From a candidate division WOR-3 bacterium (GTDB lineage Bacteria; Hydrothermota; UBA3072; B12-G15), in NCBI GenBank assembly GCA_965649055.1, contig CBFGJG010000059.1, positions 1 to 10,684 on the forward strand: 10,684 nucleotides of DNA, in the 5' to 3' direction. The notes under the pieces are model-generated. The model made no database searches. It was not told the origin of the DNA and saw nothing but the letters and a program-made list of their open reading frames with translations. The position numbers and the translations under genes are program-made. Below are positions 113-10,536 of this stretch, in pieces; position 1 is the first letter of the stretch; the number at the start of each line of letters is the position of its first letter.

Positions 113-1903
113 TTATTTTGTTTTTGATTGAATCAAAAGATTGTTTAATTCTTTTATTTTCTCTTTTACATCTCCAAAATTTGGGTCAATCTTGATTATC
201 TCCTTAAATTCATTTATTGCTTCATTTATCTTGTTCTGGCTCGCATAAAGAACACCAAGGTGATAATGGAATGCCAGCAAAGGAATCGGGTTTTTACCTT
301 TTTCATTCTCAATTGTTTTCTTGTATATTATCTCTGCTGTTTTAAGTTCACCCTTCTCTTCATAGCATTTACCGAGCATTTCAAGTGATTTAAATTTTTC
401 CTTCTCACCTTTCATAGATATCTTGAACTGTGAGATTGCTTCGTCAATAAGCCCCATCTCTTTATAAGTAAGACCTAAATCATAATGGCTTGAATAATCT
501 TCTGCAGATATATTTTCAAATATCTTCTGTTTAAACTGTGTAAGCAGGTATTCTATATTTTCTTCGCCTGGAACCTTCTCTTCAATCTTTATAGATATCC
601 CTTTTTCTTCCTCTTTTAAAAGGTCCTCGAAGTTTATCCCAGCTTCCTCTTTCTTTACTTCTTCTAATTTTACAGTTTCTTCTTCCTTCGGTATTATCTC
701 TTTTAGAAGTGGATGTGAAGGATTTATTTTTATTGCTTTATCAAGTGCATTTTTTGCTTCTTCTTCAGCACCCCTTTTCATAAGACAGTTGTATAGTGCA
801 ACATATGCCTCAACCGCTTTATCCTTATCGTTTATCCTTAAAGCAATCTGGATCATCTTCTGTATTGGTCTTATTTCATAAGGTTTTATATCCGAAATCT
901 TCTTATAAATTTCTTCTGCTTTCACAAGGTCACCAGTATCAAAGAAATAATCAGCGGCTTTTGAATAATATTCAATTGCATCCTCGTTTGAACCGATCGA
1001 CTCATAAAGCTGTGCAACTGTAAGCCAGTCCATCCAGTCTGTTACTGATTTTTCAATAGATTTAATATCCGGTTCGGGTATCTCTCTTTCTTTCTTTATA
1101 TCTACCTTCTTTTCCTCAATACTCTCTTCAAGTGCCGAGATTATACTTATTTCTTCTTCCTCTTCTTCTTTCTTCACCTCTTTCTCTTCGGTCTCTTCTT
1201 TTTCCTTTTCTTTCTTCTTGACGGTCTCTACCTCTTCAGTGAAAACAGTTTTTGATTGTTCAAATACTATTTCTTCTTCCTTCTTTTCTTCAGGTGGTTT
1301 TTCACCTTTAACAGAAGCAATAGTATCTTGAATCCTATCTGCCTCTTCCACCCTTCCCTGTTCTTTATAAATATCATAAAGTATGTTCAATTGTTCAAGG
1401 GCATCTTCTTTCTTATTCTGTGATAAAAATATTTTAACAAGCTGTTCTCTTATATCTGTTTTTTTGGGGATAAGTTCCACTATCTTCTTATAAGTTGAAA
1501 GAACACCATTTATATCATTTTCTTTTGAAAATCTTTCTGCTATCCTGTAATATGCAGATGTTGCATCACCCAGAAGCCCCTGTTTGGCATAAAGGTCAGC
1601 AATTATCTCAAGCATCTGGAGTTCATCTTCACCAAGTTTTAATAATTTCTGTGCAATTGCGATCGCGTTACTATAGTAATCAAGGCTCTTGTATGAATCG
1701 AGAATTTTCCAGTAAAACTTTTTTGCAGTTGAAGTATCACCTTTCTTTACATATATCTCTGCAAGTTCTGTTAGTGATTTCAGGTCTTCAGGTGCAAGTT
1801 CAATTATCTTTTCATATAATTTTATTGCCTCATCATATTTATTCTTAAGGAGCACATTCTTTGCTTTTATCTTCAACTCGTTAATTTTATCCTGTTTTGC
1901 CAT
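113..1903 (-). CDS. Multi-TPR protein with acidic linkers and an SgmX-like C-terminal TPR module
   Basis: 596-aa ORF with many TPR-consensus helices (e.g. YDEAIKLYEKIIELAPED, LGKCYEEKGELKTAEIIYKK), Glu/Lys-rich low-complexity linkers, and a C-terminal block HYDLGLTYKEMGLIDEAISQF...YHLGVLY...DPNFGDV. Start overlaps the upstream stop (TAATG). No signal peptide or TM helix is apparent. The SgmX likeness is recalled family resemblance. Confidence 0.85.
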   Translation of the reverse strand: MAKQDKINELKIKAKNVLLKNKYDEAIKLYEKIIELAPEDLKSLTELAEIYVKKGDTSTAKKFYWKILDSYKSLDYYSNAIAIAQKLLKLGEDELQMLEIIADLYAKQGLLGDATSAYYRIAERFSKENDINGVLSTYKKIVELIPKKTDIREQLVKIFLSQNKKEDALEQLNILYDIYKEQGRVEEADRIQDTIASVKGEKPPEEKKEEEIVFEQSKTVFTEEVETVKKKEKEKEETEEKEVKKEEEEEEISIISALEESIEEKKVDIKKEREIPEPDIKSIEKSVTDWMDWLTVAQLYESIGSNEDAIEYYSKAADYFFDTGDLVKAEEIYKKISDIKPYEIRPIQKMIQIALRINDKDKAVEAYVALYNCLMKRGAEEEAKNALDKAIKINPSHPLLKEIIPKEEETVKLEEVKKEEAGINFEDLLKEEEKGISIKIEEKVPGEENIEYLLTQFKQKIFENISAEDYSSHYDLGLTYKEMGLIDEAISQFKISMKGEKEKFKSLEMLGKCYEEKGELKTAEIIYKKTIENEKGKNPIPLLAFHYHLGVLYASQNKINEAINEFKEIIKIDPNFGDVKEKIKELNNLLIQSKTK

Positions 1904-2718
1904 TATCCTATCTCCAGATCCTCACAAACCCTGTTTATAACAGCTTCGTCAACCGGATTCTTTTTTATTATTGAACCTTCAAGAAGTGCATTATCACAGA
2001 TAACATTTATCAACCTTGGGATACCTTTTGAATACCTGTAAATATATTCAACTGCTTTTGGTGTGAATACATCATTATCAACCCCACACTGTTTTGTTCT
2101 GAATTTTATATAATCCCTCGTTGAATTGAATGAAAGTGTTGAAAGCTTAATAATAGAAGAGATTCTCTGGAAAAGTGAACTATTTGTTTTCAGATTACTC
2201 ATCATAACAGGCATTCCACATAGTATAAATGTAATCAACCTTGAACCTGAAAGCTCAAGATTGAGTAGTCCCCTAATCTCTTCAAGCATAGCCTGTGTTG
2301 ATATGTTATTTGCCTCATCTATAATCAATATACAGTGTTTTCCTTCCCTGTGAACATTGTATAGATATTTTATAATAAGACCGATCATTTCTGATTTTGT
2401 AGACGAATTCACTTCTATTCCAAAAAGAACAGCAAGATTCTTCAGGAACCATTCAACTTCAAAATCTGAATGAGTTAAAATCATTAAACCAGAAATAAAT
2501 TTCTTATCCTTTGAAATCTCCGATAGGAGTTTTCTTGCAAGGGTTGACTTCCCGCATCCAACTTCACCGGTCAATATACCAAGACCTCTATTCCTCTTTA
2601 TCACATGGAGAAGTTTAATGAATGCCCTTGAATGCTCAGGACCACTATAAAACAATGATGCATCAGGTGTATCTGAAAAAGGTTCTTTTTTGAATCCATA
2701 AAAATTTTCGTAATCCAT
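1903..2718 (-). CDS. ExeA/GspA-family AAA+ ATPase (ATPase domain only)
   Basis: N-terminal YENFYGFKKEPFSDTPD family signature, Walker A GEVGCGKS, Walker B LIIDEAN, ILCG and FQRI motifs, C-terminal SKGIPRLINVICDNAL. SD AGGAGG at 2730-2725. No C-terminal TM or peptidoglycan-binding extension. Confidence 0.93.
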   Translation of the reverse strand: MDYENFYGFKKEPFSDTPDASLFYSGPEHSRAFIKLLHVIKRNRGLGILTGEVGCGKSTLARKLLSEISKDKKFISGLMILTHSDFEVEWFLKNLAVLFGIEVNSSTKSEMIGLIIKYLYNVHREGKHCILIIDEANNISTQAMLEEIRGLLNLELSGSRLITFILCGMPVMMSNLKTNSSLFQRISSIIKLSTLSFNSTRDYIKFRTKQCGVDNDVFTPKAVEYIYRYSKGIPRLINVICDNALLEGSIIKKNPVDEAVINRVCEDLEIG

Positions 2719-2728
2719 CTATATCCTC

Positions 2729-3727
2729 CTATATAAATATGATATTTTCTTCTTCTATTTTCGCTGGTTTTTCTAATTTCTTTTTTTCTATATGCTCAAC
2801 TTTCTCAACATTTACAGGTGCTGGCTCAACCCTTGCAGGTTTTACTTCCTCTTCTTTTTTTGGTTTTGGTGGTGAAACCCTATCTCTAACATCTTTATAA
2901 TCAGGTGAAATTGAAAATATCTTGTTGAATATCTGGAGTGCTTTATCTATCTTCCCTTCTTCTTGATATTTAAGACCAATATTATAAAGATATTCAAGTC
3001 TTTCATCACCCGAAAGAACCTCATCTATCATATTTATTGCGTTCTCATAATCACCTTGATAAATTGCGATATCTATCAATAATTTTGTCCCTTCCTTATA
3101 ATATGAGCCACCTATCTCCCTTACTTTATTTATCTCCTCAATACCTAATTCTTTTATCCCTTCCTTTAAAAGTTCCTTTCCAAGGTGATACCTTAATTCT
3201 GATTCTGTATCTTTCGAGATTGAAATCTGTATTTTCCGAAGCTCCTCCAGGATTTTATTATCTTCCCTTTCCAATTTAAAGTTTTGTATTTCCGGGTCAT
3301 CAGGATATTTACTTTTAATATTCTTCAGAATGCTTTCTGCTTTTTCTATCTCACCTTTAGCGGCGAATGCGGTTATAGCCCTTGTATAATTCTGTTTTGC
3401 ATCATCTGCAGAACCGATATCCCATAATAGATCTGCCATTTCAAGATAAGATTGTGCGTCAAATTCTTCCTTTGTATCGGATGGTTTAGTGTACTCTAAA
3501 ACTATGTTCCTAATCTCTTCAGGGAACTTGCCAATAATCTGCGGAAGATTTGAAGGAGAACCACCCTCATCCAGATACGAAATTAAAAAATTAAATGCAT
3601 CTGTTGTAAGTCCGTATTCAGAAAGGCTCATAGCAAGATAAAGCATATTCTCAGGTGTTTTTTCAGCAAGGTACATCTTATAGGCAATTATAACATTCTT
3701 CAATGTTTCTTCATTCAATTTCCTCAC
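2729..3727 (-). CDS. TPR-repeat protein, probable shortened paralogue of the 596-aa TPR protein
   Basis: 332-aa ORF with TPR helices (LYNIGLKYQEEGKIDKALQIFNKIFSISPDY) and a Pro/Lys/Glu-rich tail ending NIIFI. Start is GTG at 3727 or, better spaced from the GGGGGTG SD-like sequence, TTG at 3718. Both overlap the end of hutI. Confidence 0.8.
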   Translation of the reverse strand: MRKLNEETLKNVIIAYKMYLAEKTPENMLYLAMSLSEYGLTTDAFNFLISYLDEGGSPSNLPQIIGKFPEEIRNIVLEYTKPSDTKEEFDAQSYLEMADLLWDIGSADDAKQNYTRAITAFAAKGEIEKAESILKNIKSKYPDDPEIQNFKLEREDNKILEELRKIQISISKDTESELRYHLGKELLKEGIKELGIEEINKVREIGGSYYKEGTKLLIDIAIYQGDYENAINMIDEVLSGDERLEYLYNIGLKYQEEGKIDKALQIFNKIFSISPDYKDVRDRVSPPKPKKEEEVKPARVEPAPVNVEKVEHIEKKKLEKPAKIEEENIIFI

Positions 3728-4907
3728 CCCCTTTAATAATTTTTTTTACAGGATTTTCTCCAAACCAGTAAAATATCTCCCTGAAATCTCTGTATTTTGT
3801 TATGATTATATCCGCATCTTTACCAATTTCTATTGAACCTTTTTTATCCCCGGCATTTATTGCATATGCTGCATTTATTGTAATACCCGCAAGGACATCT
3901 TCAGGTGTAAGTCTTAAGTATGTTGTTGCAAATGAGCCTGCAACGGGTAAATACTTCAAAGGTGAAGAGCCTGGATTAAAATCGGTTCCTATAGCTATGG
4001 GTATTTCATTATCTTTTATTTTATCAACAGGTGCAGGATTCTCTCTTAAATAAAAAGATGTGAAAGGGAGAAGGACGGCTACTGTCCCTGCCCTCTGCAT
4101 CATCTTAAGTCCTTTATCAGATGGGTGAAGCAGATGGTCAGCAGATATACAACCAATTTCTCCTGCTATTTCTGAACCGCCCGAAGATTTTATCTCATCT
4201 GCATGAATCTTTGGTATAAGCTTGTATTCCTTTCCTTTCAGTAAAATTTTTCTTGATTCTTCTCTTGTAAAAACCGTTTCTTCACAGAAGACATCAATAA
4301 ATTCTGCAAGTTTTCTTTCATGGATTTCAGGTATCATTTCAAGAATTTCATTTATATAATCTTCTCTTTCCTTTTCCGGTGGAAAATCATGTGCACCGAT
4401 GAATGTAGGATAGACATTGAACTCTTTCTTCATATCATTTATAACTTCAAGCATTTTTAATTCATTTTCTCTATCAAGTCCATATCCAGATTTTATTTCA
4501 ACAGATGTCACACCCCATTTTAACATATCTTTTAATCTGTTTTTCAATATATTTATAAGTTCTTCTTTTTTCGCTTCCCTTGTTTTTTTCACTGTGCTCA
4601 TAATCCCGCCACCCTCTTTCCTTATTTCCATATAACTTTTTCCTCTGATTTTCATATCAAACTCATTAACCCTGTTGCCTGCAAAAAGTGTATGTGTATG
4701 CGGGTCAATAAAACCAGGAATCACAACATTCCCTTCCGCATCTATAATCTTCTTCGCATTTCCATCATATTCACCAATATATGATATCTTTCCATCTTTT
4801 ATCCCTATATCTCCTTTCTTTATAATCCCAAGGTCAAAATTTTTTCCCTTTTTAAGTCCGCCTTTCATTGTTATTATATATCCATTTTTTATCAGTAAAT
4901 CTATCAT
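3711..4907 (-). CDS. hutI: Imidazolonepropionase (amidohydrolase superfamily)
   Basis: Motifs [43 protein letters not shown] and [13 protein letters not shown] overlap with hutU. Confidence 0.97.
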
Positions 4908-6553
4908 TTAAGCATTGGCATCCTTATCTTTTTCTTTTTCACTGTGTTTATTGCGATTTCGTATCCTGCATCTGCATGCCTCACAACTCCAAGCCCACAA
5001 TCATTATTTAAAACCCTTTCAAGTTTCTTTTCCTGTTCTCTTGTTCCATCGGCTACAATCACCATACCTGCATGGATTGAATAACCAATACCCACACCGC
5101 CTCCATGATGGACAGAAACCCAGGTTGCACCTGAAGCAGTATTTAGTAATGCATTAAGAATAGGCCAGTCAGCAATTGCATCAGAGCCGTCTTTCATTGC
5201 CTCTGTTTCCCTGTATGGTGAAGCCACACTTCCGGTATCATGATGGTCTCTACCGATCACTATAGGTGCTGATACTATACCTTTTTTAACCATCTTATTC
5301 ATCAGTAAACCTGCTTTTGCCCTATCCCCATATTCAAGCCAGCAGATTCTTGCAGGAAGTCCCTGGAATTTTACCATTTTCTGGGCTGTCTTTATCCATT
5401 TTATCAGGTGCTCATCCTTGAAGTTTTCCATTATCATCTTATCAGTCTCATATATATCCTGTTTTTTACCTGATAAAGCAACCCACCTGAATGGCCCGCT
5501 ACCTTTTGAGAAGAGTGGCCTTATATATTTTGGAACGTATCCCGGTATTAAGAACGCATCATTCACACCTGCCTGTCTTGCCCTCTCCCTTATATTATTA
5601 CCATACTCAAATGACCTTGCACCCTTCTTCATAAGTTCAAGCCAGCCAGAGACATGAATAGCAATTGAATCGTATGCAAGTTTAAGATACTTATCAGGGT
5701 CTTTCTTTCTCAACTCAGCTGCCTCTTCTACTGAAAGACCTCTTGGAATATACCCATTCAACGGGTCATGTGCAGCGGTTTGGTCTGTAACAACATCAGG
5801 GACTATATCTCTCTTTGCGAGTTCAGGAATTATATCTGCTGCATTTGCAAGAAGTCCTATTGAGATTGGTTTATTATTCCTGATATGTTCATCTTTTATT
5901 CTCAATGCTTCATCGAGATTATCTGTCCATGTATCAAGGTATTTGGTATTAATCCTTCTATCTATTGCCCTCTTATCCACTTCTATTATAATAGAAACAC
6001 CATCATTCATAGTGAAGGCGAGTGGTTGTGCACCTCCCATTTCACCAAGTCCAGACGAAAGAACCCATTTCCCTTTTAGGGAACCGCCGAATTCCTCGTT
6101 TGCAAGTGAAAAAACAGTTTCATAAGTTCCCTGCAAAATCCCCTGTGTTCCAATGTATATCCAGCTACCAGCTGTCATCTGTCCATACATAGTCAATCCC
6201 ATCTCTTCAAGCCTTGTAAATTCCTCGAATGTCGCCCATTTGGGAACAAGCATAGAGTTGACAATAAGAACCCTTGGAGCCCAGGTGTGTGTCTTCCATA
6301 AACAAACAGGTTTACCGGACTGAATGAGTAATGTGTCGTCAACATCCATTTTCTTTAATGTCTCTATAATCTTGTAATAGCACTCCCAGTTCCTTGCTGC
6401 TTTTCCCTTACCACCATAAACAATGAGATTATCAGGGTCTTTTGCAACCTCTCTATCAAGATTATTCATAAGCATTCTCATAGGTGCTTCAATAAGCCAC
6501 GATTTACAGGAAATTTTATTTCCTCTTGGTGCTTTTATATTTCTTGTTTTCAT
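4904..6553 (-). CDS. hutU: Urocanate hydratase (urocanase)
   Basis: 549 aa with motifs [75 protein letters not shown] and HHGGGVG. SD GGAGG at 6563-6559. Confidence 0.99.
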
Positions 6554-6664: not shown

Positions 6665-6692
6665 TTGACATAATACTTTGAAATGGTAAAAT
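6665..6692 (+). promoter_or_regulatory. Putative sigma70-type promoter of the rightward operon
   Basis: Perfect TTGACA (6665-6670), 16 bp spacer containing an extended-10 TG (6684-6685), TAAAAT (6687-6692). AAGGA SD-like sequence before ATG 6711. Confidence 0.7.
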
Positions 6693-6710
6693 TGTAAAAA
6701 AGGATTTTAG

Positions 6711-7334
6711 ATGGAAGTTGAGGTTGAATTAACAAAGATATTTGGATTAATCTTTTTCCTCGTTGTTGTTATTTTCCTTTTAATTGTTTTTATTGGAACA
6801 TTTTTAAATAAATCTAAAACAAAAAATGTCATAAATGGAAAGAAATTCTATGAATTAGTTTCTCTTTTAGATGATAAAAATCTAAGAAAAAATGCACTTG
6901 AAAGGCTTGCAAATATAAAAGATAAAAGGAGCATAGAGATTATAACATCTTTTATAGATTCACTTGATACAGGTGATCCTGATGATAGAAATATTATGAA
7001 TTATGCGTTTGACTTAATTTCTGAGATCAACGATAAAACAGTTCTTGATTTTATGATTACAACACTGCAAGGGAAAGAAATCCTGAAAAAATATTCGGCA
7101 TTAAAAAAGATCTCATATCTTGTTCAGGTGAAAAAAATTAAGGCTAAAGAATTTGTTATCCCGATTCTCTCTTTAGTTAAAGAATTGCAGGAACTAAAAT
7201 TGAAAAATTCCCAATCTTACAATAAGGAAATAGAAGAAATAGCAATAATTATATTAAACGAATTAACAGGGAAGGATTTTGGTAAAGATACTGAAAAATG
7301 GGAAGAATGGGTATCTCAGAATTTAAAAACATAG
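6711..7334 (+). CDS. Membrane-anchored HEAT/ARM-like repeat protein of unknown function
   Basis: N-terminal hydrophobic helix (IFGLIFFLVVVIFLLIVFIGTFL) followed by basic residues, HEAT-like units (LRKNALERLANIKDKRSIEIITSFI, AFDLISEINDKTVLDFMITTL) and a C-terminal LNELTGKDFGKDTEKWEEW cap. Confidence 0.7.
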   Translation: MEVEVELTKIFGLIFFLVVVIFLLIVFIGTFLNKSKTKNVINGKKFYELVSLLDDKNLRKNALERLANIKDKRSIEIITSFIDSLDTGDPDDRNIMNYAFDLISEINDKTVLDFMITTLQGKEILKKYSALKKISYLVQVKKIKAKEFVIPILSLVKELQELKLKNSQSYNKEIEEIAIIILNELTGKDFGKDTEKWEEWVSQNLKT

Positions 7335-7868: not shown

Positions 7869-8369
7869 ATGAAATTATACACAAGATTCACGACATCAAT
7901 CCTTATGACTGCACTTGCAATCTCTTTGGGATATCTGCTTTCATTCATCCCAAATGTAGAACTTGTTCTTCCAGCCATATTCATATCTGGTTTTATAACA
8001 GGATTCTCAGGTGGAATTCTAACAGGTATAATGACATTTTTAATCTATGGATACTTCAATCCATTTGGTCCATCACCTTTATTTCTTCTCCTTTCACAAA
8101 TTACAGGTGGCGCAATTGTAGGTATATCAGGTGGTATTTATAGAATTATAAATAAAAAAAATGTTTTCATCTGTGGAATACTGGGATTTACTTCAATATT
8201 ATTCTATGATATCATAACAACAATAACTGGTTTCATAATATTTCTGACAAAAAATACATTTATAGGTTATGTAATTGCAGGTTTACCTTTCATCCTTATA
8301 CATATTCTTTCAGGAACATTTGTATTTATATTTATAATATATCCATTAACAAGGCGGTTAAAAATATGA
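7869..8369 (+). CDS. ECF-type transporter S component (CbrT-like, probable cobalamin/vitamin substrate)
   Basis: 166 aa with about 5-6 hydrophobic helices, IPNVEL after TM1, Gly-spaced helices (GFSGGILTG), FNPFGPS loop and late GLPF...HILS motif. Coupled to a TonB-dependent receptor gene. Confidence 0.75.
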   Translation: MKLYTRFTTSILMTALAISLGYLLSFIPNVELVLPAIFISGFITGFSGGILTGIMTFLIYGYFNPFGPSPLFLLLSQITGGAIVGISGGIYRIINKKNVFICGILGFTSILFYDIITTITGFIIFLTKNTFIGYVIAGLPFILIHILSGTFVFIFIIYPLTRRLKI

Positions 8370-10039
8370 TTTTATTATTATTTTCACAAGAATACATTAT
8401 TGAAGGAATAACAATTAAAGGTGATATAAATAAATATTTTTCTTATGAATACATTGACTCAACGATGTTAAATTATTTTTCTGAGACAAACGAACTTTTT
8501 TTATCTTTAACAGAACTGAATCTTTTTTCCTATGGTTCACCTCTGCTTTTAAATCAGTTATCAATAAAATCAAATTCATCAAAGAATCTTATCTTTAATC
8601 TGAATGGTATCCCTGTTAATGATATAAAGACAGGAATATTTGATATTAGTCTCATTCCAATTGAAACAATATATAATGTTGAGATTTTTAAAAGTAGTTT
8701 CTCAATCTCTGAAGGTTCAATGGATGGTGTTATAAACTTAAATAAAAAAATAAAAAATAATATATCATTAACAGTTGGAAATCATAATGACTTAAGATTA
8801 ATCTTCTCAAAGGAGATTAAAGGAAAAGGGCTTTCAATTTATTTCAGGGATTTTGGTGGATACAGGAAAAATTCAGATGGAAGAATTTTTAATATTTCAT
8901 ACATTGACAGAAATATCTTCTTAGATTGGACATACAAGAAAACAGGTCTTCCCGGTCCAAAACCTTTTTCATTTATTCCGGAATTTGGTGATTCAGATGT
9001 TTACTCATTATATGATAATGAAAAGGATTATCTTTTTCTTTTATCTTATGATTTGAAAAGGGATAATATAAATATTTTACCATATATCTCCTATTCAAAA
9101 ATGATTCCATATTCAAGGTATCGTGATTATTTTACAGGGAACATTGTCGATGAAACAGATGATTACAGGGTATACACAGCTGGCTTAAAATTCTCTTTTG
9201 ATAAATTCTTTAATTTTAGTGTAAGATTTGATTCAATATATATGAAAGGGCTTGACACATTATGGGGAAAAGATAACTTTTCTATACTTTTATCACAAAG
9301 ATTTCAAAATAATATAAAAAATTTTATTATCAATATGGGTGCGAGTATAAACTATGATAAAATTACAGGATTTAATCACAACGAATTTATTGGTTTATCA
9401 CTGATAAAACCTATAAATCTATATATTTTATTAACAAAAGATTACAGGAAACCATCGTACAATGAATTATTCTGGCCAAATTATTCAAATCCTGAACTTA
9501 AATCGGAAAAATCAAACGAGATAATTATTGGATTAAAATTTAAAGAATATATTGATCTTTCATTCTTCAAAAAATGGATAAGAAATAAAATAAGCCTTAA
9601 TGAGAACTGGATACCTGATAATATTGATTCAGTATTCACGGAAGGTTTAAATCTAAGTTTATCTTTTAATCTTGAATTTCTTAAATTTAACACCATAATA
9701 AAATACACGGATGGGAAGGAGTTTCACAACACAAATCAATTTTTTCTCCAGCATATACCAAAAAATAGTTTCAAACTAAATCTTTTCATTTTTAAAGAAC
9801 CTGAAATATTCATTGGTTTTGTTTACAATGGAAATGTAAAAAAGATAAATTTTGATGATATACCTTCTTACTATATCATAAATACCGGTATTATTAAAAA
9901 TGTAAGGGATATAAAGATAAATTTTTCAGTGAATAATCTCTTGAACAAAAAATACTATACAAATTTTGGTTATTCTAATGGAGAATACTATCCCGGTGAA
10001 CCTTTCGGTTTGAAGGTAAGTGTTTCAAAAAAAATTTAA
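8366..10039 (+). CDS. Compact TonB-dependent outer-membrane receptor (BtuB-like)
   Basis: TonB-box-like EGITIKG, plug motifs LNGIPVND...FDISLIP.ETIYNVEIFK and GSMDGVINL, barrel motifs YRKPSYNELFW...NPELKSEKS and VNNLLNKKY...YPGEP. ATGA overlap with the S-component gene. Confidence 0.85.
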   Translation: MILLLFSQEYIIEGITIKGDINKYFSYEYIDSTMLNYFSETNELFLSLTELNLFSYGSPLLLNQLSIKSNSSKNLIFNLNGIPVNDIKTGIFDISLIPIETIYNVEIFKSSFSISEGSMDGVINLNKKIKNNISLTVGNHNDLRLIFSKEIKGKGLSIYFRDFGGYRKNSDGRIFNISYIDRNIFLDWTYKKTGLPGPKPFSFIPEFGDSDVYSLYDNEKDYLFLLSYDLKRDNINILPYISYSKMIPYSRYRDYFTGNIVDETDDYRVYTAGLKFSFDKFFNFSVRFDSIYMKGLDTLWGKDNFSILLSQRFQNNIKNFIINMGASINYDKITGFNHNEFIGLSLIKPINLYILLTKDYRKPSYNELFWPNYSNPELKSEKSNEIIIGLKFKEYIDLSFFKKWIRNKISLNENWIPDNIDSVFTEGLNLSLSFNLEFLKFNTIIKYTDGKEFHNTNQFFLQHIPKNSFKLNLFIFKEPEIFIGFVYNGNVKKINFDDIPSYYIINTGIIKNVRDIKINFSVNNLLNKKYYTNFGYSNGEYYPGEPFGLKVSVSKKI

Positions 10040-10536
10040 TCTTTTGATTTTATCTCTTCAAATATACCTGTTTTCTTATTCTTTCTCACATTATCATAGT
10101 TGAAGTATCTTCCATTCATTACAATATAGACTCCGTGAGGGAGAACCTGGACAAACGCAATAGAAGAACCAAGATTAAAAAGGCCATCTGAACTTCCAAA
10201 TGTGTATGGTATCATAGCACCTGTGAGAACGATTGTTTTATTCTTAACTTTTTCAGCAATAACCTTTGCTGTTTCAACCATTGTATCTGTCCCATGTGTT
10301 ATTATTATCCTGTCTTCCTCGCATTTCTGGCAATTCAATGCTATTATTTCCCTATCTTCGTCAGTCATATTAAGGCTATCTATCATCATTAAAGTTCTTA
10401 TTTCCACAGGGACTTTGCATCTTCCAAGTTCAAGCATCTGATGGATATGGGTCTCTTTAAAATAAAGTTCGCCTGTTAATTCATTATACTCTTTATCAAA
10501 TGTTCCACCTGTTATAAAAATCCTTATACTGTTCAT
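10036..10536 (-). CDS. ansA: Short-chain L-asparaginase (N-terminal catalytic domain only)
   Basis: Catalytic motifs ITGGTFDKEY, DSLNMT, ITHGTDTM, VLTGAMIP and SDGLFNL. 166 aa with no signal peptide and no C-terminal asparaginase domain. Confidence 0.92.
   Translation of the reverse strand: MNSIRIFITGGTFDKEYNELTGELYFKETHIHQMLELGRCKVPVEIRTLMMIDSLNMTDEDREIIALNCQKCEEDRIIITHGTDTMVETAKVIAEKVKNKTIVLTGAMIPYTFGSSDGLFNLGSSIAFVQVLPHGVYIVMNGRYFNYDNVRKNKKTGIFEEIKSKD

Follow-up and report, generated by a model that had tools for sequence, protein, structure and literature searches.

A reduced tandem duplication of an SgmX-family scaffold and its ATPase, with a predicted C-terminal hook, in a candidate division WOR-3 bacterium

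The window analysed here is a stretch of 10,684 nucleotides from a candidate division WOR-3 bacterium, the whole of contig CBFGJG010000059.1 (C59) of assembly GCA_965649055.1; the source genome measures 2.08 Mb, with 31.6% GC, and is 93.8% complete, and the close homologues that have names carry the WOR-3 label. Three minus-strand open reading frames (ORFs), at 2729-3727 (332 aa), 1903-2718 (271 aa) and 113-1903 (596 aa), encode two helical-repeat proteins with an AAA+ ATPase between them. Comparison with relatives indicates that this triad is the reduced form of an old tandem duplication of a scaffold and ATPase pair, of which the second ATPase (ATPase 2) has been lost in the window's family. 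The scaffold is related to SgmX, which is known to connect type IV pili with MglA, a Ras-like GTPase. We consider it moderately probable that the 332-aa protein (copy A) hooks the remaining ATPase (ATPase 1) by its last six residues, as predicted, and that the tailless 596-aa protein (copy B) likely works alone as an MglA-controlled activator of type IVa pili. What carries this reading is observed: homology, the duplication, a tail motif and the co-loss of that tail with ATPase 2. A preliminary description of the same DNA had proposed a polarity or pilus-activation system. Its likeness to SgmX, its MglA and pili and its conserved linkage stand, whereas its appeal to Bdellovibrio Bd2492 does not; tamAB, for which it proposed a search, is not linked here, and it missed the paralogue and the duplication; we found neither a likeness limited to repeat consensus, nor a genome devoid of MglA and type IV pili, nor a linkage confined to this locus.

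Copy B is almost certainly a member of the SgmX family, with specific collinear homology that goes beyond the consensus of tetratricopeptide repeats (TPRs). Its top NCBIfam match is NF052243 (118.7 bits, the next family 67.3, cut-off 1800), to which it aligns at positions 9-200 and 875-1014, the latter being the three-repeat block of the M-domain. A six-frame search of the genome with NF052243 left 3 of 26 candidates, of which the two strongest were the two ends of the 596-aa gene. Relatives behave alike: all 49 that were aligned, picked for diversity from the 120 matches listed, match NF052243 at E<=1e-15. A myxobacterial-type profile, built from 70 of the 120 myxobacterial-type matches listed, gives copy B 184.7 bits, with the next of 3319 ORFs at 80.8, and the matches run collinearly through an N-terminal (E 1e-23, positions 6-198), a middle (E 1e-5, 389-484) and a C-terminal part (E 3e-27). 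Myxococcus xanthus SgmX was represented in these comparisons by the NF052243 profile and Anaeromyxobacter-type matches.

The structure model of copy B has three confident helical-repeat blocks (about residues 1-200, 289-405 and 450-595) and two disordered linkers with 35-39% Asp plus Glu, bearing out the architecture of an N-terminal array, acidic linkers and a C-terminal three-repeat block that had been described from the sequence. On the minus strand, the N-terminal block (residues 1-200, 1304-1903) is homologous to the start of the SgmX pilus-activating domain, and the middle block (residues 286-405, 689-1048), flanked by the acidic linkers, is defined by helices in the model and a weak profile match. 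The C-terminal block (residues 446-590, 134-568), homologous to the MglA-binding M-domain, carries 8 of the 9 columns that are invariant across the 49 family members, and the protein ends 10 residues past the match to the last repeat helix. By analogy with M. xanthus, it is fairly probable that this block binds MglA-GTP. A search of PDB sequences with copy B returned generic TPRs only and no SgmX structure.

The match has its gaps. The N-terminal block covers about 200 of 295 profile positions, positions 575-620 of the myxobacterial-type profile are unmatched, and the NF052243 score is 7% of the equivalog cut-off; we do not file copy B as an equivalog. That cut-off is narrow, because a myxobacterial-type relative of 805 aa itself reaches only 700 bits.

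We regard the 332-aa protein as a shrunken, degenerate paralogue of SgmX, since it has a profile match, longer relatives, the corresponding position and a shared tail; it is not filed as a functional SgmX. An alignment of copy-A proteins matches the C-terminal block of copy B with a profile-profile probability of 99.8 over 113 columns, a figure that TPR likeness inflates, and the longer copy-A relatives match NF052243. These reach 580-657 aa in most genomes of three families (f15, f35 and f36), and copy A measures 260-530 aa elsewhere. In the window it comprises a degenerate M-like block, a charged linker and the conserved tail: its C-terminal 173 aa give no NF052243 match at 1e-9, and profile and alignment comparison detected neither the N-terminal pilus-activating block, which has been lost, nor an intact M-domain signature. 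Its true start is probably the TTG at 3718 (329 aa), in line with the starts of most relatives.

The tail, a conserved hydrophobic motif of five residues, follows a variable charged linker and has the consensus N/K/R-I-x-F-L/I/V in copy A and K-I/V-S/T-Y-I/V/L/M in copy B. In the window it is the predicted hook ENIIFI, residues 327-332 of copy A (2732-2749, minus strand), whose I329 is invariant in 23 copy-A proteins. All 120 myxobacterial-type matches listed end in N/K-I/V-G-Y/F-L/V/I, a count biased by a query (the last 206 residues of a relative) that included the motif, with many matches unaligned through it; one WOR-3 tail aligns to position 1064 of the 1065 of NF052243. Only 3 of the 1671 ORFs of at least 150 aa in the source genome carry the motif, one of them the 332-aa protein. 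Its association with the cassette ATPases is close: the gene directly upstream has the strict motif in 97 of 113 cases, hydrophobic variants in 13 and none in 3, against 0 of 8 for other ExeA-type ATPases. The 113 come from a set of 137 ATPase rows, from which one probable duplicate locus was removed. Copy A of the window has kept the tail and copy B has not. A frameshift hiding a tail in the 596-aa gene was considered and rejected: no downstream frame holds the motif, and 25 close relatives (P0003-P0028 minus one cut record) also end without it.

Gene order, read in WOR-3 genomes and metagenome loci, is scaffold A, ATPase 1, scaffold B, ATPase 2 and then a PHP gene in most WOR-3 families. We interpret the triad as a reduced duplication because of this order, the length of copy A (up to 657 aa) and the split of ATPase 1 from ATPase 2 in a quick tree. 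The order copy A-ATPase 1-copy B is kept in 23 of 42 loci compared (25 with two whose upstream gene clusters apart), which argues that the arrangement is not due to chance and upholds the conserved linkage that had been expected. The scaffold-ATPase pair behaves as a unit, since pairs are lost or moved whole: two genomes have only copy B and ATPase 2 (G029, G055), two only copy A and ATPase 1 (G121, G128), and one (G146) has the two pairs at separate loci. No ATPase gene follows the 596-aa gene in the window's family, and genome searches did not find ATPase 2 in the source genome (G000) or its kin G001-G003.

Loss of the tail goes with loss of ATPase 2. The tally covers 70 WOR-3 genomes with a readable end of copy B, G003 being left out for its cut contig. 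Tail and adjacent ATPase 2 occur together in 44, and a tail with ATPase 2 elsewhere in 18 (7 of these assigned by score band only); both are missing in six, G000-G002 and G067-G069, in the last three of which the PHP gene directly follows copy B. ATPase 2 is thus present in 62 of 63 genomes with a tailed copy B and missing in 6 of 7 with a tailless one. The two tailless families lie on separate branches, and the second case was predicted before its DNA was checked. The exceptions are G025 (95% complete), which has a tail and no ATPase 2 found, and G158, where a decayed tail stands with a kept, somewhat diverged ATPase 2. In 16 f2 genomes, as in G035, the second ATPase is encoded at another site, and the co-loss amounts to only two independent events. 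In G158 (L220, 4740-4830) copy B ends early and is followed by a motif remnant with stops; the score of its ATPase 2 is lower than in sister genomes, with a change after Walker B, and this is possibly a loss in progress. Among the best 80 of 567 metagenome loci, 2 have tails and ATPases and 78 have neither in the fetched DNA, and a polyprenyl synthetase gene lies just downstream in 69; these loci, mostly of one high-GC lineage, were read as locus DNA and not as whole genomes, 18 of them with less than 1 kb downstream.

The ATPase (1903-2718, minus strand) is a stand-alone ExeA-type AAA+ protein matching PF13401; against TIGR03015, the PEP-CTERM system ATPase, it scores 190.6 bits, below the threshold of 324.5. 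It contains Walker A, Walker B, arginine-finger and sensor-2 motifs, and in the Walker A motif (residues 51-58, 2545-2568) G51, G54, G56 and K57 are invariant in 27 ATPase sequences. Fold comparison places TnsC, MuB and Orc/Cdc6 nearest among solved relatives, the first two also being nearest by sequence. A quick tree splits 25 rows of ATPase 1 from 19 rows of ATPase 2, with support of 90 and 95, and the window's protein falls among the former. In a wider quick tree a single group with support of 100, set apart from other ExeA-type proteins, unites both sets with representatives whose labels are Myxococcales, Myxococcota or Deltaproteobacteria; these trees place neither ATPase 1 nor ATPase 2 closer to the myxobacterial proteins.

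Relatives of the ATPase show several other arrangements. In one locus (L230, G146:C1:2016521) a frame of 921 aa begins with ATPase 1, a fusion seen in no other locus, and another (L233, G222:C11:127854-130288) has three or four ExeA-type ATPase genes in tandem, one broken, with no SgmX-type scaffold upstream. Most non-WOR-3 relatives (P0242-P0290) have long C-terminal extensions rich in Pro, Glu and Ala; in several of the short relatives the C-terminus is an acidic-hydrophobic stretch resembling a helix, which could itself be a docking element.

To place the tail on the ATPase, a complex was predicted from the ATPase (27-row alignment), residues 300-332 of the 332-aa protein and ATP/Mg, with three controls. 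It scores 0.83, the best control 0.03. Of 157 solved complexes 116 pass the same mark, and of 215 mismatched pairs only 2 do, counts that are only rough here, as own alignments and ligands lie outside the calibration of the tool. Repeat runs share at least 66% of contacts, with a partner pLDDT of at least 47. The fold of the partner is uncertain, and residues 327-332 alone are placed with low error. They lie along ATPase residues 76-83, including the strand 74-80, with residues 62, 65, 90, 94 and 98 nearby; the predicted surface, residues 62-98 with edge strand 74-83 and flanking helices, corresponds to 2425-2535 on the minus strand.

Conservation is consistent with this site. R62, L65, L78, H83 and W90 are conserved at 99, 88, 81, 76 and 99% in 67 ATPase-1 rows and at 100, 100, 98, 100 and 100% in 53 ATPase-2 rows, and not in 9 other ExeA-type ATPases. 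At least four of the five occur in 46 of the 50 top-ranked representatives, in 25 of the 50 that come after these and in 7 of the 50 ranked lowest, a gradient that is partly circular since the ranking used the same family profile. The interface residues are conserved throughout the subfamily, proteins labelled Myxococcota included. An ATPase of a chemotaxis locus on contig C4 was considered as ATPase 2 and ruled out by the trees and by its surface residues. We judge it rather probable, from this model, that the tail of the 332-aa protein binds the edge strand. The prediction is unlikely to be a copy of the TnsB-TnsC complex, because the TnsB hook sits at the junction of core and helical bundle, though it may echo known strand-addition complexes in general.

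Gene order, tail motif and the predicted complex all point to the 332-aa protein as the likely partner of the ATPase, the 596-aa protein having lost both the tail and an ATPase of its own. A cytoplasmic complex of all three proteins, in which the ATPase acts on the 596-aa protein, would be compatible with the one-base translational coupling of their genes and with the A-ATPase 1-B order kept in most loci, and copy A could bridge ATPase and copy B by repeat-repeat contacts; but the 596-aa protein has no tail, copy A with ATPase 1 occurs without copy B, copy B with ATPase 2 occurs without copy A, and in G146 the pairs lie apart. We consider such a ternary complex improbable. Far less probable still is that an ExeA-like ATPase stands next to generic repeat proteins whose resemblance to SgmX is TPR consensus, with the motif a degradation or other terminal signal and the linkage an inherited operon. 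The low fraction of the NF052243 cut-off would fit, hydrophobic C-termini can act as protease signals, and hutI is a conserved neighbour too, which means that linkage alone need not imply function. Such a view is opposed by the collinear matches at both ends of copy B, with a score more than twice that of any other ORF in the genome, by a motif that tracks the ATPase and by control predictions of 0.03 or less.

The pathway in which we place copy B is encoded in the source genome, as a check for mglA, mglB and pilus genes established. Contig C23 has an mglB-mglA pair; its MglA, which a PF03029 search did not detect and which was recognised as the neighbour of mglB, matches solved MglA at E 2e-87. 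A second MglA, 57% identical, is on C4. The type IVa set comprises two PilB above the cut-off and a third at it, five PilT/PilU, a PilC-like gene and PilM with a PilQ-type secretin beside them; a Tad set is also present. Among 226 genomes of the phylum, 118 match the scaffold alignment at E<=1e-25 and 145 have MglA, and MglA occurs in 90 of the 92 with a scaffold match at E<=1e-40. Four candidates were scored per genome in this survey, weak matches may be generic TPRs, and kin are not independent. A rule of one scaffold per MglA paralogue was dropped, as G067, G070-G074 and G035 have both scaffolds and one MglA match.

Other clusters of the source genome join such genes in different ways. The second mglA heads a cluster (C4, 63849-72600) with a DUF4388-TPR gene, cheR, cheD, a cheB-like gene, a TPR gene, two cheW and a third ExeA-type ATPase without the H83/W90 surface, pilT lying inside accB-accC upstream. 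On C14 (21980-33440) are cheW, cheY, cheA, cheC, a fusion of MCP and solute-binding domains, an 874-aa TPR protein, DUF4388 and three tandem roadblock-domain genes, then tamB, with two pilT further down. A Tad/Flp pilus cluster on C31 (8100-12500) includes an ATPase with an N-terminal FHA domain.

In an alternative reading tail and ATPase do pair, but for a purpose other than pili (division, assembly of the envelope or positioning linked to DNA, for example), and control of pili by SgmX would be peculiar to myxobacteria. In published work, deletion of the M. xanthus ATPase gene MXAN_5765 leaves pilus motility unaffected (PMC7668184, PMC11580455), insertions in it leave development unaffected (10.64898/2026.08.28.747804), tamAB lies downstream in Myxococcus (PMC3983030), and the one cultured WOR-3 strain is described as piliated and not seen to move (PMC12285271). 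The ATPase fold is moreover nearest to DNA-binding TnsC, MuB and Orc/Cdc6, and copy A has no pilus-activating block. On the other side, copy B keeps both the N-terminal and the M-type block, MglA, PilB, PilT, PilC, PilM and a PilQ-type secretin are present, clustering of WOR-3 loci showed no tamAB next to the cassette, and the ATPase has no DNA-binding domain. We hold this alternative to be unlikely, if slightly less so than the ternary complex.

The silent MXAN_5765 mutants and the strain not seen to move also weigh against our own reading of a copy-A hook and a solitary copy-B activator, as do the 55 of 145 MglA genomes without a scaffold match at E<=1e-40, the gaps in the profile match, the exceptions and the small number of events in the co-loss tally, and the limits of the complex prediction. 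If it is correct nonetheless, the tail, at the end of a long flexible linker, would lie along the edge strand of the ATPase core, and copy A would be an adaptor tethering ATPase 1 to a scaffold at the cell pole, much as the TnsB hook recruits the related ATPase TnsC, at a different site. The tail would probably also tune the nucleotide cycle of the ATPase. The C-terminal block of copy B would bind MglA-GTP and its N-terminal block promote PilB-driven pilus extension, as in M. xanthus, and it would do so without an ATPase partner, the tail-ATPase pair being an accessory to the MglA-pilus pathway and not its core. More tentatively, and with more doubt than confidence, we suggest that SgmX has a fourth functional element, a terminal hook shared from WOR-3 to myxobacteria that docks on an MXAN_5765-type AAA+ subfamily as a second nucleotide switch in MglA-controlled pilus polarity, the job being split in the window's family between a tailless activator and an ATPase adaptor.

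If true, this would give the ATPase family a direct, testable partner. The five-residue end, its co-loss with the ATPase and the predicted site can be tested cheaply in M. xanthus, and WOR-3 supplies natural tailless, single-pair and split-pair variants. The window contributes a copy B that is tailless by nature, a second co-loss independent of the first and a complex prediction run with controls, and the locus would extend SgmX-type control to a phylum for which we found one cultured strain described. The finding would matter less if the ATPase is a dispensable accessory, as the published deletions suggest. In the literature searched, largely without subscription papers and supplements, where domain figures of SgmX could mark the tail, neither an SgmX from WOR-3 nor the duplication nor the tail is described.

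The three genes are tightly coupled, as first described. The stop of the 332-aa gene (2731-2729) overlaps the AGGAGG ribosome site of the ATPase gene (2725-2731, minus strand), 10 nt before its start, and the ATPase stop shares one base, 1903, with the start of the 596-aa gene. Upstream on the same strand lie hutU, urocanate hydratase (4904-6553, TIGR01228 above cut-off), and hutI, imidazolonepropionase (3711-4907, TIGR01224 above cut-off). The transcription unit likely comprises five genes, headed by hutU, because hutU and hutI overlap each other (4 nt) and hutI the 332-aa gene (17 nt). A promoter-like site upstream of hutU (6670-6698, minus strand, 10 of 12 consensus positions) is weak and argued by placement, not score, since the scan was near chance (33 sites of this level against 25 expected); the terminator scan was also near chance level, and the window has no Rfam match. 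Both repeat proteins are apparently soluble and the ATPase bare, in keeping with the preliminary description: the best 19-residue hydropathy is 0.57, 1.35 and 0.82 in the three proteins, whereas a membrane protein encoded elsewhere in the window reaches 3.58, and this hydropathy scan, made without a dedicated signal-peptide predictor, found no membrane-type stretch in any of them.

In many WOR-3 loci hutI lies directly upstream of an SgmX-family gene, and so it does in 51 of the best 80 of 567 metagenome loci, mostly of the distant high-GC lineage and often with hutU and hutH. The linkage of histidine catabolism genes with an SgmX-type scaffold is, on this evidence, old; a functional tie is not argued, the cassette being without hut genes in several genomes despite it. 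The remaining genes of the window stand apart. On the plus strand, 6711-7334 encodes a protein of 207 aa without Pfam or NCBIfam match, in which a single membrane segment at the N-terminus is joined to a soluble part resembling helical repeats. At 7869-10039 (plus), after a nitroreductase gene, a 166-aa membrane protein without Pfam match, which gives us the impression of an ECF-type substrate component, is overlapped by a 557-aa TonB-dependent receptor-like gene whose product is weakly nearest BtuB; a cobalamin uptake unit is possible, and the Rfam scan showed no riboswitch near it. A short asparaginase of 166 aa, N-terminal domain only, is encoded at 10036-10536 (minus).

Among known systems, ExeA has an ATPase fused to membrane and peptidoglycan-binding or periplasmic parts and works with ExeB in a type II secretion context. 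ExeA/GspA and the PEP-CTERM ATPase share the PF13401 domain family with the window's ATPase, which is, however, a soluble protein of 271 aa without a membrane or peptidoglycan-binding part; generic members of the TIGR03015/ExeA type are without the H83/W90 surface of the cassette ATPases. With TnsC/TnsB and MuB the common theme would be the recruitment of a partner to the ATPase by a hydrophobic peptide, a few residues at the C-terminus that follow a flexible linker. According to 10.64898/2026.05.18.725949, the TnsB hook binds TnsC at the core/helical-bundle junction near the ATP site, whereas the site predicted here is the edge strand of the core. The annotated window contains no transposase, target-selector gene or mobile element of a TnsC/TniB context, and PF05621 stays below its cut-off.

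Bdellovibrio has two SgmX-like genes close together, Bd2492 (SgmX1) and Bd2490 (SgmX2), for repeat proteins tied to MglA, and in this resembles the window. It is set apart by its published description: both proteins align only to the N-terminal part of SgmX, Bd2492 weakly (E 0.042; PMC11025332), which makes it unsuitable as the model for the C-terminal block that it had been taken for, and no ATPase gene lies between bd2492 and tamAB (PMC3983030).

The closest counterpart is M. xanthus SgmX (MXAN_5766), in which pili are activated by the N-terminal domain (repeats 1-8), FrzS is bound by the S-domain (repeats 9-11) and MglA-GTP by the M-domain (repeats 12-14) (PMC9811614, PMC7668184). Copy B shares with it a soluble scaffold with homologous N- and C-terminal blocks in the same order, MglA/MglB and type IVa pili in the genome and an adjoining ATPase gene. 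It differs in size (596 against 1060 aa), in its shorter N-terminal block, in having no terminal tail and in leaving unmatched a short block that precedes the M-domain of the myxobacterial-type profile. The M. xanthus order, as given in PMC3983030, is sgmX, the ATPase gene MXAN_5765, tamB, tamA, which confirms the neighbouring ATPase gene that the preliminary description had named; the window instead has a second, shrunken paralogue upstream and no linked tamAB in the 112 nt between copy B and the contig end, the TamB genes of the source genome being on C14 and C17. Myxococcota-type relatives of the ATPase mostly have long C-terminal extensions, whereas that of the window is a bare domain and duplicate copy 1. 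MXAN_5765, a putative secretion-system ATPase, occupies the same position relative to a tailed scaffold as the cassette ATPases, to which we infer it to be orthologous, and Myxococcota-labelled proteins fall with ATPase 1 and ATPase 2 in a supported clade and share their R/L/L/H/W surface.

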